Source: Anaerolineales bacterium (lineage in GTDB: Bacteria; Chloroflexota; Anaerolineae; Anaerolineales; E44-bin32). From it: 64,000 nt of DNA. The stretch is taken from assembly GCA_035455265.1 (NCBI GenBank), contig DATIFK010000012.1, positions 6,035 to 70,034 on the forward strand, written 5' to 3'. The notes under the pieces were generated by a model. That model saw only the letters and a program-made list of their open reading frames with translations, was not told the origin of the DNA and did no database searches. A program made the translations under genes and the position numbers. Positions 15,993 through 64,000 of this stretch are shown piece after piece. How positions within the stretch are numbered: position 1 is the first letter of the stretch; every line of letters starts with the position of its first letter.

Positions 15993-16005
15993 GGCGCCTC
16001 AGCGA

Positions 16006-16066
16006 GTGGCCAGTGGTCAGTGGTCAGTGGAGTCTGATCTTCCTGGCCACTGACCACTCACCACTG
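16006..16066. repeat. heptad-type inverted repeat hairpin (CAGTGGT units)
   Basis: gtggccagtggtcagtggtcagtgg ... ccactgaccactcaccactg; about 20 bp of complementarity with one mismatch. Confidence 0.8.
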
Positions 16067-17706: not shown

Positions 17707-17804
17707 TCAGTTTCCAGTTGCCAGTTGCCAGTTGCCAGTTTCCAGTGCCAATCTCTAGTCTCTAGTCCCCCATCCCCAACCCCCAATCCCCAATCCCCAA
17801 TCCC
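17707..17804. repeat. 14-unit phase-perfect heptanucleotide tandem array
   Basis: TCAGTTT CCAGTTG x3 CCAGTTT CCAGTGC CAATCTC TAGTCTC TAGTCCC CCATCCC CAACCCC CAATCCC x3; the 7-nt phase is unbroken over 98 bp. Confidence 0.9.
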
Positions 17805-31022: not shown

Positions 31023-31023
31023 G

Positions 31024-31093
31024 TTTCCAGTCACCAGTTCCCAGTGCCCAGTCTGGCGCTTGACTGGAAACTGGAAACTGGAGACCGGGAACC
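31024..31093. repeat. heptad-type inverted repeat between convergent genes
   Basis: tttccagtcaccagttcccagtgcccagtc ... gactggaaactggaaactggagaccgggaacc. Confidence 0.75.
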
Positions 31094-35123: not shown

Positions 35124-35130
35124 AGAAAGC

Positions 35131-35268
35131 TGTCAGTGGTCAGCGGTCAGCGAGCGGTCTTTCAGTTCCCAGTTTCCAGTTCCCAGTTTCCAGTCCCCAG
35201 TCTCCAATCCCTAATCCCCAACCTACCTTCCTCCCCCTCTGACGGCTGACCACTCATCACTCACCACC
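35131..35268. repeat. about 13-unit heptanucleotide array enclosed by complementary outer arms
   Basis: TGTCAGT GGTCAGC GGTCAGC ... TTCCCAG TTTCCAG TTCCCAG TTTCCAG TCCCCAG TCTCCAA TCCCTAA TCCCCAA, followed by ctgacggctgaccactcatcactcaccacc, which is complementary to the first units. Confidence 0.85.
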
Positions 35269-37583: not shown

Positions 37584-37680
37584 CAGTCTTCAGTTGTCAG
37601 TCCTCAGTTATCAGTCAAACCCAGGTCGCCCTCGGTGGTCTTAACTGACAACTGATGACTGACGACTGACGACTCCTGAG
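37584..37680. repeat. heptad-type inverted repeat pair
   Basis: cagtcttcagttgtcagtcctcagttatcagtcaaac ... ttaactgacaactgatgactgacgactgacgactcctgag. Confidence 0.8.
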
Positions 37681-39210: not shown

Positions 39211-39293
39211 GAGTCGTCAGTCGTCAGTCTTCAGTTCTCAGTAAGACCAATTCGATACCCGACAACTGACAACTGATGACTGACAACTGATGG
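39211..39293. repeat. heptad-type inverted repeat pair
   Basis: gagtcgtcagtcgtcagtcttcagttctcagtaag ... gacaactgacaactgatgactgacaactgatgg. Confidence 0.8.
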
Positions 39294-45087: not shown

Positions 45088-45178
45088 GGTTCCCAGTTCC
45101 CAGTCACCAGTTTCCAGTCTCACTGTTCCGGGCCGTGCGGGAAACTGGAAACCGGAAACTGGGAACTGGAGACTGGCG
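45088..45178. repeat. heptad-type inverted repeat pair
   Basis: ggttcccagttcccagtcaccagtttccagtctcactg ... gggaaactggaaaccggaaactgggaactggagactggcg. Confidence 0.8.
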
Positions 45179-57326: not shown

Positions 57327-58106
57327 TTGGCTGCCATTTCTCAGGTCCGGCTCCTCCACCTCGACCCGCCAGTCGATCGTCTGATCGCCGGTGCGCCGCT
57401 GTACGCCCAGATCGCCGACGCGCTGCTCGGCCGCATCCAGAGGGGCGAGCTGGCGGTCGGCGATCGGTTGCCCCCGGAGCGCGAGTTGAGCGAGCACCTG
57501 GGGGTCAACCGGCTCACCCTGCGCCGTGCCCTGCGCGAATTGGAACACCGCGGCCTGTTGCGCCGTCGGCCCGGCCTGGGCACGTTCGTGGTCGAGCCCA
57601 AGGTCGAACGGCCCGCCGGTCGCCTCATTTCCTTCACTCGCGACGCGCAGCAGCTCGGATTTGCACCCGGTGCGAAGTTGCTGTCGCTGCAACCTCGCCT
57701 GGCCGACGCCGAACAGGCTGCCGACCTGCAGTTGCCGCTTTCGGCCGTGGTCTGGGACATCCTCCGCCTGCGGACGCTCAACACCGAACCGGTCCTGTTG
57801 GAGCACTACGCCCTGCCCCAACCGCGGTTCCCGAGCCTGGACCGGTTCGACCTGGAAGGCCGCTCCGTTTTCGAGGTCCTCGAGACGGAGTTCGGCGCCA
57901 CGATCGCGCGCGCCCGCCAGAGCCTGGAAGCCGTCGCCGCCGGCGTGCGCGAGGCTGAGTTGCTCGGTGTCTCGCCCGGCGCGCCCTTGATGCTCGAGCG
58001 CCGGCTGTCGTTCGACGCGCAGGATCGACCGGTGGAGCTCGGGCAAGACCTGTATCGAGGCGACCGTTTTCGTTTTGTGACCGAAAAGGCGCCGCGCGAA
58101 CGCTGA
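57327..58106 (+). CDS. GntR-family transcriptional regulator, HutC subfamily (UTRA effector domain)
   Basis: PLYAQIADALLGRIQRGEL.VGDRLPPERELSEHLGVNRLTLRRALRELEHRGLL followed by a UTRA-like C-terminal domain. TTG start (no in-frame ATG upstream of the HTH). Confidence 0.85.
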   Translation: MAAISQVRLLHLDPPVDRLIAGAPLYAQIADALLGRIQRGELAVGDRLPPERELSEHLGVNRLTLRRALRELEHRGLLRRRPGLGTFVVEPKVERPAGRLISFTRDAQQLGFAPGAKLLSLQPRLADAEQAADLQLPLSAVVWDILRLRTLNTEPVLLEHYALPQPRFPSLDRFDLEGRSVFEVLETEFGATIARARQSLEAVAAGVREAELLGVSPGAPLMLERRLSFDAQDRPVELGQDLYRGDRFRFVTEKAPRER

Positions 58107-58124
58107 GGCGCCGGGAGTCCCGCG

Positions 58125-59645
58125 ATGATCCATGACTATGCCAACCTGCTGACGGCGGACCAGGTCGAACGAGTGCATGCCGCTTCCCTGGAGATCCTGG
58201 CCGACGTCGGGCTCCTGGTGCGCAACGCCCGGGCCCGCGAGATCTTCGGCCGGCACGGCGCCCGCGTCGATGGCGAGTCCCAGGTTGTGCGGATTCCACC
58301 GGCCGTGGTCGAGGAATTTCGCCGTCAGATCCCGCCGACCTTCACCTTCTACGGCCGCGACCCGCGTTTCGACAAGACTATGCCGCAGGACACGCCGGTC
58401 ATCGTCACCGGTTCGTCGGCGCCGAACATCGTCGATCCGACCACCGGCCAGGAGCGGCGCGCCCGCTCCGACGACCTGGCCCGCATCGCCCACCTGGTCA
58501 ACGAGCTGCCGGGCTACGACGTCTTCTCGATTTCCACCTTGGCCGACGATGCGCCGCCCGGGCTGTTCACCCTGACGCGCCTGTACGCCTCGACCAAGTA
58601 CTGCCTCAAGCCGGTGCGCGCCAGCGGTCCCCCGGACGATGCCGCCAAGATTCTGGACTTCGCCTTCTTGGCGGCCGGTGGGGAAGATGCCTATCGCGCC
58701 CATCCGTTCATCACTCACCACTACTGCCCGGTCGTCTCGCCGCTGACGATGGACTTCGATTCGACCGAGATGTTGCTGTTCTTCAGCGGCGAAGGTTTGC
58801 CGTGCTACCCGACGATCGTCCCCAACGCCGGCCTGACATCTCCGCTGACTCTCCTGGCGACCCTGGCCCAGGGGAACGCCGAGTTCTTGGCCGCCGCCGT
58901 GCTCGAGCAAATGGTCCGCCCCGGCAAGCCGACGATCTACAGCAGCCTGCCGACGGTCGCCGACATGCGCACCGGAGCCTACGCGCCGGGCGCCATCGAG
59001 ACCGGCATCCTCTTCATCGGCACGGCGCAGATGGCGCGCTTCTACAACGTCCCCTGCGGCGGCTACATCGGGCTGACGAATGCCAAGGTCAACGACGCTC
59101 AGTCGGGGTACGAGACCGGGATGTCGGTCATCGCCGGGCTGCTGGGCGGGGTTCACATGTTCAACATGGCCGGCTTGCTCGACGCCCTGATGTCGTTCGA
59201 TTTCGCCAAGGCGATCATCGACGATGAAATCGCCCTGATGCTGAAGAAGACCGCCGCCGGCATACCCTTCTCCGATGACGAGTTCGCCCTGGACCTGATC
59301 GCCGAGGTGGGCCCCGGCGGGATGTTCGCCGACCACCTGCACACTGTCGAGCGGATGAAGACCACCGGGCTTCTGCCGGAGATCGCCGACCGCAACCCGC
59401 GCGGGCTGTGGCTCGAGCGGGGCGGCCTGGACGCGCACGCCCGCGCCCTGCAGCGGGCCCACGATATCCTGACGCGCGACAACAACGCCGGCTTCACGCC
59501 CGAGGTGGACGCGCAACTGCATGAGACGTTCACCGGCTTGCTGCCGACGGCGCTGCATCCGCCGCAGGGATGGACGCGGCCGCAAGGTCTCGACGGGCGC
59601 GGGCGGTCGGATCGGCGCCGGCGCCGAGCGGAGGCCGCCGCCTGA
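58125..59645 (+). CDS. MttB-superfamily (non-pyrrolysine) substrate:corrinoid methyltransferase
   Basis: 506-aa uninterrupted ORF with MttB-family blocks (LTADQVERVHAASLEILADVGLLV, SPLTLLATLAQGNAE, NMAGLLD). No in-frame TAG. Confidence 0.88.
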   Translation: MIHDYANLLTADQVERVHAASLEILADVGLLVRNARAREIFGRHGARVDGESQVVRIPPAVVEEFRRQIPPTFTFYGRDPRFDKTMPQDTPVIVTGSSAPNIVDPTTGQERRARSDDLARIAHLVNELPGYDVFSISTLADDAPPGLFTLTRLYASTKYCLKPVRASGPPDDAAKILDFAFLAAGGEDAYRAHPFITHHYCPVVSPLTMDFDSTEMLLFFSGEGLPCYPTIVPNAGLTSPLTLLATLAQGNAEFLAAAVLEQMVRPGKPTIYSSLPTVADMRTGAYAPGAIETGILFIGTAQMARFYNVPCGGYIGLTNAKVNDAQSGYETGMSVIAGLLGGVHMFNMAGLLDALMSFDFAKAIIDDEIALMLKKTAAGIPFSDDEFALDLIAEVGPGGMFADHLHTVERMKTTGLLPEIADRNPRGLWLERGGLDAHARALQRAHDILTRDNNAGFTPEVDAQLHETFTGLLPTALHPPQGWTRPQGLDGRGRSDRRRRRAEAAA

Positions 59646-59670
59646 GGTCTCATGCCGCGGCTGATAGCCT

Positions 59671-60537
59671 ATGACCCTCGCCAACCTGCTCCTCCTGCTG
59701 ACGGCGGCCGGCGTGCACGTCGTGACGCACATCGCCCTCAAGCGCAGCCGCGATCGGTCGGCTTTCGTCGGCTGGATGCTGCTGTGGTCGGCCATCCTCT
59801 TCTCGCCCATCGTCATTCTGACGCGCGCCTCGATTCCGCCGATCGGTTGGGCGCTGATGGCCTTCAGTTCGATCTTCGAGGCGGGTTACTTCATCGCCAT
59901 CGCCCTGGCGTATCGCGGCGCCGACCTCTCGGTGGTCTATCCGCTGGCGCGCGGCGTGGGGCCCGTGCTCTTGCTGGTATGGTCCGGCCTCATCCTGCGC
60001 GAGCCGCTGACCGCCGGCGGGGTCATCGGGGTGGGGTTGATCGCCCTGGGGCTGTACACCGTCAACCTGCCGCGGCCGGGCGCGTGGCGCGAGCCGCTCG
60101 CCGCCCTGCGCCAGAGCGGACCGCGCTGGGCGGTGGCGGCGGGAGTCTGCATCTCGGGCTACACCGCTATCGACAAGGTCGGGATCCGCTACGTGCCGCC
60201 GCTGCTCTATACCTATCTGGCGCTGTGGATTACCCTTCTGTGGGTGGCGCCGTGGACGGTGTGGTTTGTTGGTCGCAGCGGTCTGCGCGACGAGTGGCGC
60301 CTTTCGAAGTGGGGGATCATCCTGGCCGGGTTCACCACGTTGGCGGCCTACGGTCTGGTCCTGTTGGCGATGGCCGCGGGCACGCCGGCCAGCTACGCCG
60401 GGGCGATCCGCGAGGTGAGCGTGGTGTTGGGGGCCGCCTACGGCGTCTATGTGCTGAAGGAACAAGGCGGTCCGATGCGTCTGGTGGGCGCCGCTCTGGT
60501 CGCCTGCGGCGTGGTGGCGATCGGGTTGTTGGGGTGA
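59671..60537 (+). CDS. DMT-superfamily (EamA-like) transporter
   Basis: Ten-TM-like profile inside the corrinoid methyltransferase operon. Confidence 0.8.
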   Translation: MTLANLLLLLTAAGVHVVTHIALKRSRDRSAFVGWMLLWSAILFSPIVILTRASIPPIGWALMAFSSIFEAGYFIAIALAYRGADLSVVYPLARGVGPVLLLVWSGLILREPLTAGGVIGVGLIALGLYTVNLPRPGAWREPLAALRQSGPRWAVAAGVCISGYTAIDKVGIRYVPPLLYTYLALWITLLWVAPWTVWFVGRSGLRDEWRLSKWGIILAGFTTLAAYGLVLLAMAAGTPASYAGAIREVSVVLGAAYGVYVLKEQGGPMRLVGAALVACGVVAIGLLG

Positions 60538-60587
60538 GCGGTGGTTTGGTGATTGGAGATTCGTGACTTGTTCTCGCAGAAACGAAA

Positions 60588-60607
60588 CCGCAGGCTGAAG
60601 CCTGCGG
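60588..60607 (+). other. small stem-loop between the DMT transporter and activase genes
   Basis: CCGCAGGC-TGAA-GCCTGCGG; no T-tract follows. Confidence 0.3.
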
Positions 60608-60620
60608 CTACCGGCAACAC

Positions 60621-60647
60621 GGATGGCTGACGGCTGATGGCTGATCC
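60621..60647. repeat. heptad-type repeat (GGCTGAY units) running into the activase start codon
   Basis: ggatGGCTGACGGCTGATGGCTGATcc. The ATG at 60637 lies inside the third unit. Confidence 0.55.
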
Positions 60648-62676
60648 CGTAACCACATCCACCCATACGCTCATCCTGATGCCCTCCGGCCGGCGAGGTT
60701 CGGTCGCGCATAGCGCCAACTTGCTCGATGCCGCTCGTCAGCTCGGCGTCGAGATCGAGTCGATTTGCGGTGGGCGCCAGACCTGCGGCAAATGCCAGGT
60801 CGTCGTCGAGTCGGGAGCGTTCGCCAAGCACGGGATCACTTCCGATGACGGCCGCCTTTCCCCCGTTGGGCAGGTCGAGGCCGAGTACTGCGACGCCCAC
60901 GGGATTCGCGGCCGCCGGCTGGCCTGCGCCGCAAAGGTCGTCGGCGACGTTCTGATTGTCGTGCCGGAGGAAAGTCAGGCGCACAAGCAGGTCATCGCCA
61001 AGGCCGCCGTCGAACGGGCGGTCGAGGTCGATCCGGCCGTGCGCGCCGTGTACGTCGAAGTCGAGGCGGCGAATCTGGGATCGCACGGCGGCGACTGGGA
61101 GCGCCTGCAGGCGGCGCTTGCCGACCAGTGGAAGCTGCACGATCTGACGATCGATCCGCTGACCCTGCGGCAGCTGCAGCCGGCGTTGCAGGCGGGAGGC
61201 CATACGTTGACGGTCGGCCTGTGGCAGGACCGCGAGGTGATCCGCGTGCAGCCGGGCTACGCCGAAGGCGCCTGCGGCCTGGCGATCGACGTCGGAACAA
61301 CGACGATCGTCGCTCACCTGTGCGATCTGCGCACGGGCGCTCTGCTGGCGACCGAAGCGACGATGAATCCTCAGGTCCGCTACGGCGAGGACCTGATGAG
61401 CCGGGTCAGCTATGCCATGACGGAGCCGCAAGGTGTCGATCGCCTGCACCGGGCCGTCGTGCGCGCCCTGAACGAACTGGCCGAGCGCGCCGCGGCCTCG
61501 GCCGGGCGCTCGCTGGACGACATCCTCGACGCGGTCGTCGTGGGCAATCCGGTGATGCACCACCTGGTGCTGGGCCTCGATCCGAGCGGGCTGGGTGGGG
61601 CACCGTTCGCGTTGGCCGTCAGCGCGGCGGTGGACATCAAAGCCCGTGACCTCGGCTTTCACCTGAACCCGGCTGCTCGCGTGCACACCCTGCCGTGCAT
61701 CGCCGGTCATGTCGGCGCCGATCACGTCGCCGTCCTCTTGGCCGAGTCGCCGCAGACGTCGGAAGAAACGCTGCTGATCGTCGACGTCGGCACCAACGCC
61801 GAGATTTCCGTCGGGGACCGGAAGGGCCTGGCGTGCGCCTCGAGCCCCACCGGTCCGGCTTTCGAAGGCGCCCAGATCAGCCACGGCCAACGGGCCGCCG
61901 CCGGGGCGATCGAACGCGTGCGGATCGACCCGGCGACGCTCGAGCCCAGGCTGAAAGTCATCGGCCACGAGGGCTGGATCGACGGCCAGGCGGAACGCCC
62001 GCTTCCGTCTCCAGCCCGCGCCACGGGCATCTGCGGCAGCGGCATCATCGAGGCGGTGGCCGAGATGTTCCTGGCGGGCGTGATAGACTCCGGCGGCCGG
62101 TTCGCGGACGACGCGGCGGAACGTTCTGCCCGGGTGAGGCGGGAAGGGCGCAGCGCCGCGTATGTCTTGGTGACCGCCGCCGACAGCGCCACCGGCCACG
62201 ACATCGTCGTCAGCCAGAACGACGTTCGCGCCATCCAGCTGGCCAAGGCCGCTCTGTACACCGGAGCCAAGCTGCTGCTGCGCCATCGCCGCCAGCCGTC
62301 CGTCGATCGCGTGTTGCTGGCGGGCGCCTTCGGAAACACGATCGACCCGCGCTACGCCATGGTCCTGGGTCTCATTCCGGATGCGCCGCTGGACCGTGTC
62401 CTGGCCGTGGGCAACGCCGCCGGCGACGGAGCCCGCCTGGCCCTGTTGAATCGGGGGCTGCGGGCCGAAGCGGCGCGGCTGGCGGGTTGGGTGGAGCACG
62501 TTCAGATCGCCACCGACCCGGAGTTCCAGCCGGAATTCGTCGCCGCCATGGGTCTGCCGCATGCGACCGATCCGTTCCCTCACCTGGCCGATATCCTCCC
62601 GTCGCCGTCGCCGGACGCGGTCCGCCCCAGCCAGCGGCGGAAAGCGGTGGTCACGGGAGCTTCGAGGAGCGCATGA
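60637..62676 (+). CDS. corrinoid reductive activase (RamA/RACE-like): 2Fe-2S ferredoxin domain plus ASKHA ATPase domain
   Basis: N-terminal plant-type ferredoxin motif CGGRQTCGKCQV...C. ASKHA phosphate motifs AIDVGTTT and IVDVGTNAE. 679 aa. Confidence 0.85.
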   Translation: MADPVTTSTHTLILMPSGRRGSVAHSANLLDAARQLGVEIESICGGRQTCGKCQVVVESGAFAKHGITSDDGRLSPVGQVEAEYCDAHGIRGRRLACAAKVVGDVLIVVPEESQAHKQVIAKAAVERAVEVDPAVRAVYVEVEAANLGSHGGDWERLQAALADQWKLHDLTIDPLTLRQLQPALQAGGHTLTVGLWQDREVIRVQPGYAEGACGLAIDVGTTTIVAHLCDLRTGALLATEATMNPQVRYGEDLMSRVSYAMTEPQGVDRLHRAVVRALNELAERAAASAGRSLDDILDAVVVGNPVMHHLVLGLDPSGLGGAPFALAVSAAVDIKARDLGFHLNPAARVHTLPCIAGHVGADHVAVLLAESPQTSEETLLIVDVGTNAEISVGDRKGLACASSPTGPAFEGAQISHGQRAAAGAIERVRIDPATLEPRLKVIGHEGWIDGQAERPLPSPARATGICGSGIIEAVAEMFLAGVIDSGGRFADDAAERSARVRREGRSAAYVLVTAADSATGHDIVVSQNDVRAIQLAKAALYTGAKLLLRHRRQPSVDRVLLAGAFGNTIDPRYAMVLGLIPDAPLDRVLAVGNAAGDGARLALLNRGLRAEAARLAGWVEHVQIATDPEFQPEFVAAMGLPHATDPFPHLADILPSPSPDAVRPSQRRKAVVTGASRSA

Positions 62677-63365
62677 GCGAAGACGTTGATCTGACGAAGA
62701 TGGAAACCGAGCCTCTGGTCGAACGCATCCAGGACGACCTGTACGACGGCCTGGCGGAACCGGTCGTGGCCGGCGTGAAGGAGCTCCTGCGGCGCGGCTG
62801 GATGCCCTACGAGGTGTTGACCAAGGCGCTTGTGGCCGGCATGGATGTCGTCGGCGATGACTTCCGCGACGGGATCCTGTTCGTGCCGGAAGTGCTGATG
62901 GCCGCCAAATCGATGAAGGCCGGTATGGAGATCCTTCGCCCGCTGCTGGTCGAGACCGGCGCGCCGCAGATTGGGACGATGGTCATCGGCACGGTCAAGG
63001 GTGACATCCACGACATCGGCAAGAACCTGGTGGCGATGATGATGGAGGGGGCCGGTTTCAAGGTCGTCAATCTGGGGATCAACGTCGACGCCGACAAGTT
63101 CCTGGCTGCCATTCATGAGCACAAGCCCGACATTCTCGGCATGAGCGCCCTGCTGACGACGACCATGCCCTACATGGGTGTCGTGATCAAGACCCTCAAG
63201 GAAACCGGGATCCGTCCGGAGTTGATCGTGCTCGTCGGTGGAGCGCCGCTGAACGCCGCGTTCGCCGAAGAGATCGAGGCCGATGCCTACTGCCGCGACG
63301 CGGCCGTGGCTGTGCAAACCGCCAAGAAGCTGGTGGCGATCAAACGCGGCGAGGCGGTCGGATGA
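62673..63365 (+). CDS. cobalamin-binding corrinoid protein
   Basis: ATGA overlap with the activase gene. B12-binding motifs GDIHDIGK, SALLTTT and GGAPLN, with an N-terminal helical cap. Confidence 0.9.
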   Translation: MSEDVDLTKMETEPLVERIQDDLYDGLAEPVVAGVKELLRRGWMPYEVLTKALVAGMDVVGDDFRDGILFVPEVLMAAKSMKAGMEILRPLLVETGAPQIGTMVIGTVKGDIHDIGKNLVAMMMEGAGFKVVNLGINVDADKFLAAIHEHKPDILGMSALLTTTMPYMGVVIKTLKETGIRPELIVLVGGAPLNAAFAEEIEADAYCRDAAVAVQTAKKLVAIKRGEAVG

Positions 63366-63524
63366 CCCCAATGCTTTCCACGGTCCGCACAAGGGAGGCA
63401 TTGGGGTGACCCCATCCCTTTCACCAGCCCGCACACCGCCTCGGTGCACCGAAACGGGTGGAAAGGAGGCGTTGGGGTGACCCCAACGCTTTCACCAGCC
63501 CGCACAAAGGAGGCGTTGGGGTGA
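63366..63524 (+). repeat. three tandem copies of a 44-71-bp unit (CCCCAAYGC...AAGGAGGCRTTGGGGTGA), each carrying an SD, a start and a stop
   Basis: Units at 63366-63409, 63410-63480 (with a ~27-nt insertion) and 63481-63524. Units 1 and 3 contain a perfect 9-bp inverted repeat CCCCAAYGC/GCRTTGGGG; in unit 2 the left arm is degenerate (CCCCATCCC). The last unit supplies the RBS and GTG of the downstream gene. Confidence 0.9.
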
Positions 63525-64000
63525 CCCACGATCGCTGGGCGAAGCTTCTGGCACGCCCCGGCGTTGTGCTGGCCGACGGCGCCATGGGGACGATGCTCTT
63601 CGACGCCGGCCTGCAGTTCGGCGATCCGCCCGAGCGCTGGAATGTCGAGTATCCCGATCGGGTGCGCGCCATCCACCGCGGCTACCTGGAAGCCGGGGCG
63701 CGCCTGATCCTGACCAACACCTTCGGCGGGAACGGCTTCCGTCTCGGACTGCACGGGCTGGAAGGCCGCGTGGCCGAGCTCAGCATGGCCGGGGCGCTGA
63801 TCGCTCGCGCCGAAGTGGATGCCTCCGGAAACGGAGCGCTCGTCGCCGGCGACATCGGACCCAGCGGGACGATCCTCGCGCCGCTGGGGGAGACCTTGTT
63901 CGAGGACGCCGCCGCGGCGTTTGCCGAGCAAGCCAGGGCACTGGTCAAGGGCGGCGTCGATGTCCTGTGGATTGAGACGATGTCGGACTTGGAGGAAATG
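63521..64000 (+). CDS. homocysteine S-methyltransferase-domain protein (MetH N-terminal-like), 5' partial, runs off the window
   Basis: My own translation from GTG 63521: VTHDRWAKLLARPGVVLADGAMGTMLFDAGL...YLEAGARLILTNTFGGN...GDIGPSG, which are hallmark Hcy-binding domain blocks. Absent from the ORF track because there is no stop within the window. AAGGAGG lies 8 nt upstream. Confidence 0.8.
   Translation, partial: MTHDRWAKLLARPGVVLADGAMGTMLFDAGLQFGDPPERWNVEYPDRVRAIHRGYLEAGARLILTNTFGGNGFRLGLHGLEGRVAELSMAGALIARAEVDASGNGALVAGDIGPSGTILAPLGETLFEDAAAAFAEQARALVKGGVDVLWIETMSDLEEM

Follow-up and report, generated by a model that had tools for sequence, protein, structure and literature searches.

Mycobacterial interspersed repetitive units (MIRUs) offer the closest described precedent for short repeats that carry a reading frame between the genes of an operon. 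The sections of PMC3184786 that deal with MIRUs describe elements of 40–100 bp that contain open reading frames (ORFs), overlap the flanking genes and show direct repeats at filled sites. In those sections and in the corresponding part of PMC12548453, MIRUs are presented as tandem intercistronic units whose internal ORF is coupled at −4 nt to its neighbours, and the portion of PMC4213456 concerned with the senX3-regX3 intercistronic array reports a MIRU copy number that varies between strains. All three papers review work by Supply et al. (1997). Here we describe an array of comparable design in a 64,000-nucleotide stretch of a contig from an Anaerolineales metagenome-assembled genome (MAG), hereafter the window. 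At positions 63362–63524, three tandem units of 44, 71 and 44 nt lie between the gene for a corrinoid protein and a methyltransferase-family gene. Our reading, to which we give a probability of roughly 60%, is that the array is a MIRU-like intercistronic minisatellite, made of 44-nt units located at an ATGA overlap between translationally coupled genes and present in a variable number of tandem copies.

The likeness to MIRUs resides in a unit of tens of bases (44 nt here) repeated in tandem inside an operon; in a short ORF per unit that overlaps the stop and start of its neighbours at −4 nt, as seen in 15 of 15 copies; and in filled and empty sites that differ by a tetranucleotide direct repeat, with a copy number that varies between strains. 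The differences concern the host, which belongs to the Anaerolineales (Chloroflexota), and the abundance of the element, since one locus was found in the window and 283 kb of other loci compared with about 40–50 per mycobacterial genome. In addition, most MIRUs are longer than this unit, a 14-bp hairpin that masks the Shine–Dalgarno (SD) sequence and has covariation support is the dominant feature of the unit, and mobility is unsupported here. Because the host is an Anaerolineales MAG, the likeness is architectural and strict membership is not claimed. By analogy, the locus suggests that a MIRU-like architecture, in which a repeat unit is made harmless by a dummy ORF overlapping the neighbouring stop and start, may arise outside mycobacteria.

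Other known systems share individual traits with the array. Coupling by RNA unfolding is illustrated, in the part of PMC12548453 that treats it, by phage f1 genes VII/IX, MS2 coat/lysis and E. coli rpmI-rplT. The predicted structure of our array resembles these pairs in that the downstream ribosome-binding site lies in a helix whose partner arm belongs to the upstream ORF, but a repeated, copy-variable cassette with a dummy 15-codon ORF replaces the fixed junction of two real genes. The four junctions of the array are all RTGA (R being A or G), the −4 geometry of the most efficient reinitiation coupling (PMC10666635; PMC12548453); however, three of the four coupled "genes" are fillers of 15–24 codons, and reinitiation would have to succeed serially. 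Repetitive extragenic palindromes (REPs), bacterial interspersed mosaic elements (BIMEs) and miniature inverted-repeat transposable elements (MITEs) are also small, GC-rich, palindromic and intercistronic, and sometimes tandem (PMC3184786). In contrast with them, the present unit is not dispersed in the available sequence, lies within a reading-frame ladder with SD sites and depends for its pairing on G-U pairs of the mRNA strand. A synthetic parallel is found in the bicistronic design (BCD) translation initiation elements cited in PMC12548453 (its reference 78) and reportedly devised by Mutalik et al. in 2013. There, too, the SD of the next gene lies within the coding sequence of a short leader cistron, whose stop overlaps the downstream start, and the ribosome unfolds local structure. 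Unlike BCD elements, the array is natural, tandem and located between two genes rather than after a promoter, and its hairpin appears conserved rather than merely neutralised; it may be viewed as a natural counterpart of the design with a conserved SD-masking hairpin added.

Structure of the array

The 3' end of the corrinoid-protein gene provides a GAGG (63351–63354) as well as the first ATGA junction, where the stop codon (TGA, 63363–63365) shares bases with the ATG at 63362. Three mini-ORFs follow, and the TGA of the third overlaps the GTG at 63521 that begins the PF02574 gene (Table 1). Each GTG is preceded by a GGAGG block that ends 7 nt upstream, and the weaker GAGG stands 7 nt upstream of the first ATG. 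Most of this anatomy had been anticipated in the original prediction. When the sequence was re-read and re-translated, the mini-ORFs, their translations and the four (A/G)TGA junctions held base for base. The SD blocks assigned to the three GTGs and the weaker GAGG assigned to the ATG are present, with a measured spacing of 7 nt, and the proposal of three tandem copies, the middle one with a degenerate left arm and an insertion of about 27 nt, is borne out.

The insertion of unit 2 harbors a perfect 12-nt palindrome, TCGGTGCACCGA, at 63441–63452 (inverted repeat I7). Stretches of 9 and 8 nt within it are complementary to 63350–63358 and 63374–63381, respectively. A donor of the insertion was sought and not found. 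A repeat search of the array yielded the direct-repeat families D1 and D2 and the inverted repeats I1, I4 and I6; a perfect 21-nt palindrome is located at 63469–63489. The array was not reported by Tandem Repeats Finder.

Of 100 shuffles of the window, 96 contained three or more short ORFs joined in series by NTGA. A ladder of this kind is therefore expected by chance, and the significance of the locus rests on the repeat and on its conservation in relatives, not on the ladder. The repeat itself far exceeds chance expectation: with a covariance model derived from the units, units 1 and 3 reach 67–76 bits, and scores elsewhere in the 64 kb are 13 bits or less.

Table 1. Coordinates of the array, the surrounding operon and the heptanucleotide repeats in the window.
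Feature	Position	Strand	Details
Unit 1	63362..63405	+	44 nt; covariance-model match, 66.9 bits
Mini-ORF 1	63362-63409	+	15 codons; MTPMLSTVRTREALG
Hairpin 1	63365..63407	+	15 bp; −26.1 kcal/mol; arms 63365-63379 / 63393-63407; RNA folding; inverted repeat I1
Unit 2	63406..63476	+	44 + 27 nt; degenerate left arm; SD AAGGAGG at 63463-63469; partial covariance-model match, 15.8 bits
Mini-ORF 2	63406-63480	+	24 codons; VTPSLSPARTPPRCTETGGKEALG
Insertion within unit 2	63436..63462	+	27 nt; in frame
Unit 3	63477..63520	+	44 nt; covariance-model match, 75.7 bits
Mini-ORF 3	63477-63524	+	15 codons; VTPTLSPARTKEALG
Hairpin 3	63480..63522	+	14 bp; −23.9 kcal/mol; arms 63480-63493 / 63509-63522; RNA folding
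GntR/UTRA regulator	57327-58106	+	
MttB-family methyltransferase	58125-59645	+	
EamA transporter	59671-60537	+	
RACo corrinoid activase	60637-62676	+	
Corrinoid (B12-binding) protein gene	62673..63365	+	Pfam PF02607 and PF02310
Homocysteine S-methyltransferase-family gene	63521..64000, continues past window end	+	GTG start; Pfam PF02574
Heptamer arrays	524-645, 1342, 5617, 11004, 15305, 16005-16065, 17708-17804, 19414		
Heptamer arrays, continued	31023-31082, 35128-35267, 37584-37674, 39212-39292, 42019, 45089-45176, 46640		

Copy number in close relatives

Orthologous junctions were gathered through protein homologues and a metagenome scan, and every junction was read directly. The clade counted comprises 20 contigs whose corrinoid gene differs from that of the window by up to about 17% at the DNA level, with a protein identity of 89% or more. 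No unit is present in 10 of them (L001, L093, L094, L096, L097, L101–L104 and L106); one unit is found in six (L002, L105 and L107–L110), two in three (L098 of assembly GCA_040961345.1, L099 and L100), and three in the window only. Hence the comparison of copy number across orthologous operons, a check suggested together with the original prediction, gives 0, 1, 2 or 3 units among close relatives, and the ladder is therefore dispensable. L001 lacks the unit although it is 97% identical to the three-unit window in both flanks, and a single sample, ERZ27256953, holds alleles with none (L096), one (L105) and two units (L099). In all 10 empty sites the corrinoid TGA and the methyltransferase ATG share bases, leaving a bare ATGA; the N-terminus of the methyltransferase in the window aligns with the MTNDRW/MTHDRW of these unit-free relatives. 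Among more distant orthologues (83% identity or less), junctions are unrelated and no unit was detected.

Save for the 27-nt insertion of the window, the 15 unit copies are exactly 44 nt long, and all keep RTGA at both ends. The insertion is the sole indel among them, and it is both in frame and stop-free.

The possibility that the triplication was an assembly artefact, raised in the original prediction, is excluded because homologous units occupy this junction in nine further contigs, which come from several samples and assemblies independent of one another. Collapse or expansion of the array during assembly would also be unlikely, since a sequencing read exceeds the diverged copies in length.

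Two contigs deserve a separate comment. L095, a 5.7-kb JGI contig, ends one base past the corrinoid TGA (2193–2194), that is, at the variable junction; such an end would be the effect expected of strain-level copy-number variation on an assembly graph. L105, with one unit, is 100% identical to L103, with none, over 640 nt upstream of the junction and 95.8% identical downstream. Because identity differs between the two sides, the L105 junction (1341–1382) is either a recombination breakpoint or a chimeric metagenome join.

A hairpin predicted to mask the ribosome-binding site

The perfect 9-bp inverted repeat initially noticed beside the SD and the start codon turned out to be an underestimate, as RNA folding predicts a helix of 14–15 bp that contains G-U pairs and includes the SD. 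The 5' arm, ACCCCAAYGCUUUC, begins with the final A of the stop codon and takes in codons 2–6 of the mini-ORF; the 3' arm, GGAGGCRUUGGGGU, comprises the SD and the entire 7-nt spacer and reaches two bases into the following start codon. Because the pairing of CUUUC with GGAGG needs G-U pairs, the helix exists on the mRNA strand only. In the predicted folds, each hairpin buries the spacer together with an SD and the GU of a start: the GGGAGG at 63393–63398 and the start at 63406 for hairpin 1, and the GGAGG at 63509–63513 and the methyltransferase start for hairpin 3.

Several lines of analysis indicate that the pairing is maintained. The minimum-free-energy fold of the whole region uses the intra-unit hairpins and has a z score of −3.99 on the plus strand, whereas the minus strand folds more poorly (z = −2.24). 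In nine of 12 unit variants, the helix has a predicted energy of −21 to −26 kcal/mol, with z scores of −3 to −5. When 11 distinct 48-nt units are aligned, 92% of the cells of the 14-pair helix are paired, compared with 44–57% if the partner columns are slid by 1–3 positions. Both sides have changed in four pairs (C-G to U-A, A-U to G-C, C-G to U-A and G-C to U-G), and the covariation score was reached by no shuffle. As for accessibility, the spacer that precedes the methyltransferase start is predicted to be fully paired in alleles that carry units, with a probability of being unpaired of 0.00–0.05 (the exception is L107, 0.45), and the start itself is mostly less accessible than in empty alleles.

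The units of L107–L110 (e.g., L107, 2187–2234) depart from the common structure. Their helix is weakened, with left arm CCCCCACTC and right arm GGAGGGCGTTGG; in the modelled fold, a new internal CUCC pairs with GGAG and may provide an alternative mask for the same SD.

Stable, GC-rich intercistronic hairpins whose pairing is conserved might also act at the level of mRNA decay, either by shielding the upstream corrinoid mRNA from 3' exonucleases in the manner of REP elements or by marking a cleavage site, with differential mRNA levels within the operon as the outcome. This explanation leaves aside the invariant RTGA, the 44-nt (3n−1) period, the in-frame insertion and the presence of GGAGG 7 nt before the starts; furthermore, the hairpins lack a terminator-like T run, and no dispersed copies of the unit turned up in the window or in the 283 kb of other loci. 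We consider it quite improbable. Neither an intrinsic terminator (a GC-rich stem followed by a T run) nor a sigma-70-like −35/−10 promoter was found in 62600–64000.

Age and constraint of the unit

On the corrinoid-gene tree, the unit is present in four of five subclades, and neither the basal L101 nor the outgroups carry it. The flanking genes of unit-bearing lineages are separated by a synonymous divergence (dS) of 0.5–0.7, yet in most lineage comparisons the units differ by only 9–27% and are better conserved than synonymous sites. Since the unit is common to lineages with such flanking dS values, it is old and predates the lineage splits. It has disappeared repeatedly, for which recombination between the repeats at its ends would be the simplest route, and expansion of the array can be recent, as exemplified by L100, which carries two identical copies.

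These data bear on the alternative that the array is a recent, neutral duplication of the initiation region, or an artefact, under no constraint at all. One can invoke in its favor the identical copies of L100, the interruption of L095 where repeats or strain variants would be expected to break assemblies, and the possibly chimeric nature of L105. Homologous units are found, however, in ten contigs from several samples and assemblers, they are older than splits with a dS of 0.5–0.7, frame-breaking indels are absent from the 15 copies, and compensatory changes are seen. Zero constraint is thus largely refuted, and we regard it as very improbable. The suggestion of a recent neutral duplication, made in the original prediction, fails for the unit, given its age and the 44 nt kept in 15 copies, and survives for the expansion of the array, which can be recent.

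The RTGA boundaries, GGAGG and CGCA are invariant across the 11 distinct 48-nt units. A recurring peptide pattern, [MV]-x-P-x-x-[ST]-x-x-R-x-x-E-[AG]-x-G, is also observed. Nevertheless, second codon positions of the mini-ORFs vary as much as third positions; as no codon-position signature is found, the peptide is not what is conserved, and the pattern of substitutions indicates that it is probably not selected. The recurring pattern would otherwise favor functional 15-aa micropeptides, just as the perfect 21-nt palindrome might suggest that the palindromes GCGTTGGGGTGACCCCAACGC are an operator for a dimeric regulator, for instance the GntR/UTRA protein encoded at 57327–58106. Aside from the lack of a codon signature, the conserved residues coincide with nucleotides of the stem, the SD and RTGA, single-unit alleles that have no inter-unit palindromes still keep the intra-unit helix, and G-U pairs are mismatches in DNA. 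Half of the relatives, moreover, lack the element. Both the micropeptide and the operator proposals seem to us hardly credible.

A relay model for coupling across the array

Each unit combines a start that overlaps the prior stop (RTGA), a 15-codon spacer ORF, a GGAGG located 7 nt before the next RTGA and a 14-bp hairpin. A mechanism built on these parts can be envisaged as follows. In untranslated mRNA, all downstream initiation sites would be masked, including that of the methyltransferase. A ribosome that ends translation of the corrinoid gene would reinitiate at the overlapping start and enter the 5' arm, thereby melting the hairpin and exposing the next SD and start. Either the same ribosome (by termination–reinitiation) or a fresh 30S subunit could initiate there, and the process would be repeated down the ladder until the methyltransferase is reached. 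Every unit would thus be a self-contained coupling relay that recreates a −4 junction. For this reason, the array could grow or shrink without uncoupling the methyltransferase from the corrinoid protein, and such tolerance would explain the persistence of alleles with anything from 0 to 3 units. Copies are probably gained and lost when the repeated GGAGGCG.T.GGRTGA ends slip or recombine unequally.

Reinitiation coupling requires overlaps or very short gaps (PMC10666635), so that a 44-nt insert without an ORF of this kind would uncouple the genes. An insert that recreates the −4 junction would keep them coupled, which may be why the length is exactly 3n−1, the insertion is in frame, the SD is invariant and the pairing has been maintained. 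Constraint on length, frame, SD and pairing would then be what keeps an inserted unit harmless. The interpretation offered in the original prediction, a reinitiation ladder gated by hairpins, is partly supported and sharpened; the likeness to MIRUs had not been noted there. Its architecture stands, with SD, spacer and start masked, the other arm in codons 2–6 and the pairing kept; the ladder as a necessary element does not.

Several points weigh against the MIRU-like reading and the relay that it entails. (i). Translation of the mini-ORFs, gating by the hairpin and dependence on it, and an effect of copy number on expression are steps that we infer. (ii). The common helix is weak in three variants: L002, where z is +0.5, and L107 and L109, where z is about −1; the units of L107 and L109 pair the SD with an internal CUCC instead. 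(iii). Divergence of the L002 unit has outpaced that of synonymous sites (0.30 compared with a proportion of synonymous differences, pS, of 0.17), which looks like relaxed constraint. (iv). Because the units are close relatives of one another, the covariation counts include fewer independent events than they suggest. (v). Recombination between co-occurring strains, of which L105 and L103 may provide an example, could be responsible for part of the conservation across lineages. (vi). The contrast in accessibility between filled and empty alleles is modest because, with an mRNA so rich in GC, extensive pairing is predicted for all initiation regions.

If copy number were itself under selection, the array could be an adaptive tuner or contingency locus in which each relay step shifts the yield of methyltransferase per corrinoid protein. 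Imperfect reinitiation could lower the yield or the stronger GGAGG could raise it, and slippage would endow the population with a range of stoichiometries. The divergence in copy number between the window and L001, so similar in their flanks, is compatible with a tuner; so are the coexistence of different copy numbers in ERZ27256953 and the fact that, in the lineage of the window, units replace a GAGG by the stronger GGAGG with the 7-nt spacing unchanged. On the other hand, half of the sampled alleles lack the unit entirely, a 44-nt period slips slowly compared with classical contingency repeats, and a tolerated, nearly neutral minisatellite would give the same pattern. On the basis of these sequence comparisons, selection for copy number appears doubtful.

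Under the MIRU-like reading, the locus involves no new principle. Its interest is that of a clean natural system for the study of coupling, distinguished by the conserved SD-masking hairpin: alleles that have 0, 1, 2 or 3 relay steps are already found on nearly identical backgrounds and constitute a compact natural test bed for two coupling models, RNA unfolding and ribosome reinitiation. The locus also calls for caution in annotation, as relay ORFs may be present in the short gaps between genes of GC-rich operons, and so may minisatellites that vary between strains and break metagenome assemblies.

Searches for other copies and possible mobility

With filters off, the covariance model of the unit detected no second copy in the window (13 bits or less) and none in the 283 kb of other loci. 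When the window was queried with the loop, the palindrome or the entire unit at up to 3 mismatches, all matches were local copies. The pattern CCGCANNNNGGAGGCNTNGGGRTGA produced 10 unrelated matches in 185,579 species-representative genomes, a collection without the source genome, which is about the number estimated by chance; in viral contigs it produced one chance match. Rfam 15, riboswitches included, gave no match at the gathering score, and sub-threshold matches were microRNA-hairpin noise of at most 17.8 bits. A dispersed palindromic repeat of REP/BIME or MITE type was also considered and discarded: within the sequence examined, copies occur at this junction only.

The origin of the unit was explored by considering a simple 44-nt duplication spanning the junction. 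Support for such a duplication is marginal, with 23–25 of 44 identities compared with a null of 19.4 ± 2.3; the fraction of shuffles was 0.025–0.09 for six units and 0.73 for the L002 unit. The 29-nt core has no clear local source, as might be expected of a mobile, non-autonomous element of MITE or MIRU type that has 14-bp terminal inverted repeats, targets RTGA overlaps and duplicates the tetranucleotide, with arrays arising by repeated insertion. Empty ATGA sites and filled RTGA-unit-RTGA sites, arms that resemble terminal inverted repeats and a patchy distribution on the tree would fit insertion, and MIRUs have been described as apparently mobile (PMC12548453; PMC3184786). The picture changes when one looks beyond the junction, as the window, the other loci, the species-representative genomes and the viral contigs yielded no second copy. 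Moreover, the same operon offers another ATGA (−4) overlap at 62673–62676, between the RACo and corrinoid genes, and no unit is found there, either in the window or in any relative with both genes called. The 3' 15 nt of the unit resemble the 3' end of the corrinoid gene (KEALG against GEAVG, each followed by the stop codon), and the G-U pairs point to selection at the RNA level rather than to terminal repeats in DNA. All in all, mobility seems unlikely.

An equally unlikely, if attractive, speculation is that the unit might be the first self-propagating "translational-coupling cassette" outside mycobacteria, spreading at RTGA junctions and using its copy number as a heritable stoichiometry dial in a corrinoid methyl-transfer pathway. 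Spread and expansion at RTGA junctions would be possible since the cassette carries its own start, SD, stop and SD-masking hairpin. If relatives of the cassette occupy other junctions in Chloroflexota, MIRU-type elements would be general among bacteria rather than a peculiarity of mycobacteria.

Genomic context and additional observations

Gene calls and a Pfam search of the window place the array in a plus-strand operon (Table 1). The presence in one operon of an MttB-family methyltransferase, an EamA transporter, RACo, a corrinoid protein and a protein with a homocysteine S-methyltransferase domain suggests a route from a methylated amine to the corrinoid and from there to homocysteine, that is, a split, MetH-like synthesis of methionine. 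Gene content was considered in window 57327–64000 and, beside it, in L002 2894–4494. The corrinoid protein is 100% identical to the NCBI entry "corrinoid protein [Anaerolineales bacterium]", which is a MAG entry. In relatives, the methyltransferase has 299 aa according to gene calls in L002, L093 and other loci. Downstream of it, most relatives read carry an AhpC/peroxiredoxin gene (L002, L093, L094, L097, L099, L103 and L107–L109), and L101 carries a DUF1638 gene instead.

Repeats of another kind are also found in the window. Tandem arrays of heptanucleotides, with units such as CAGTTCC, CAGTTTC, CCCCAAT and AGTCGTC among others, occur at 15 or more spots. They are alike in form to the short tandemly repeated repetitive (STRR) heptamers of cyanobacteria, although the host is in this case an Anaerolineales MAG. 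Several of the heptamer arrays are inverted pairs with the potential to form long hairpins, as seen for 31023–31052 and 31063–31082 and for 45089–45118 and 45140–45176.

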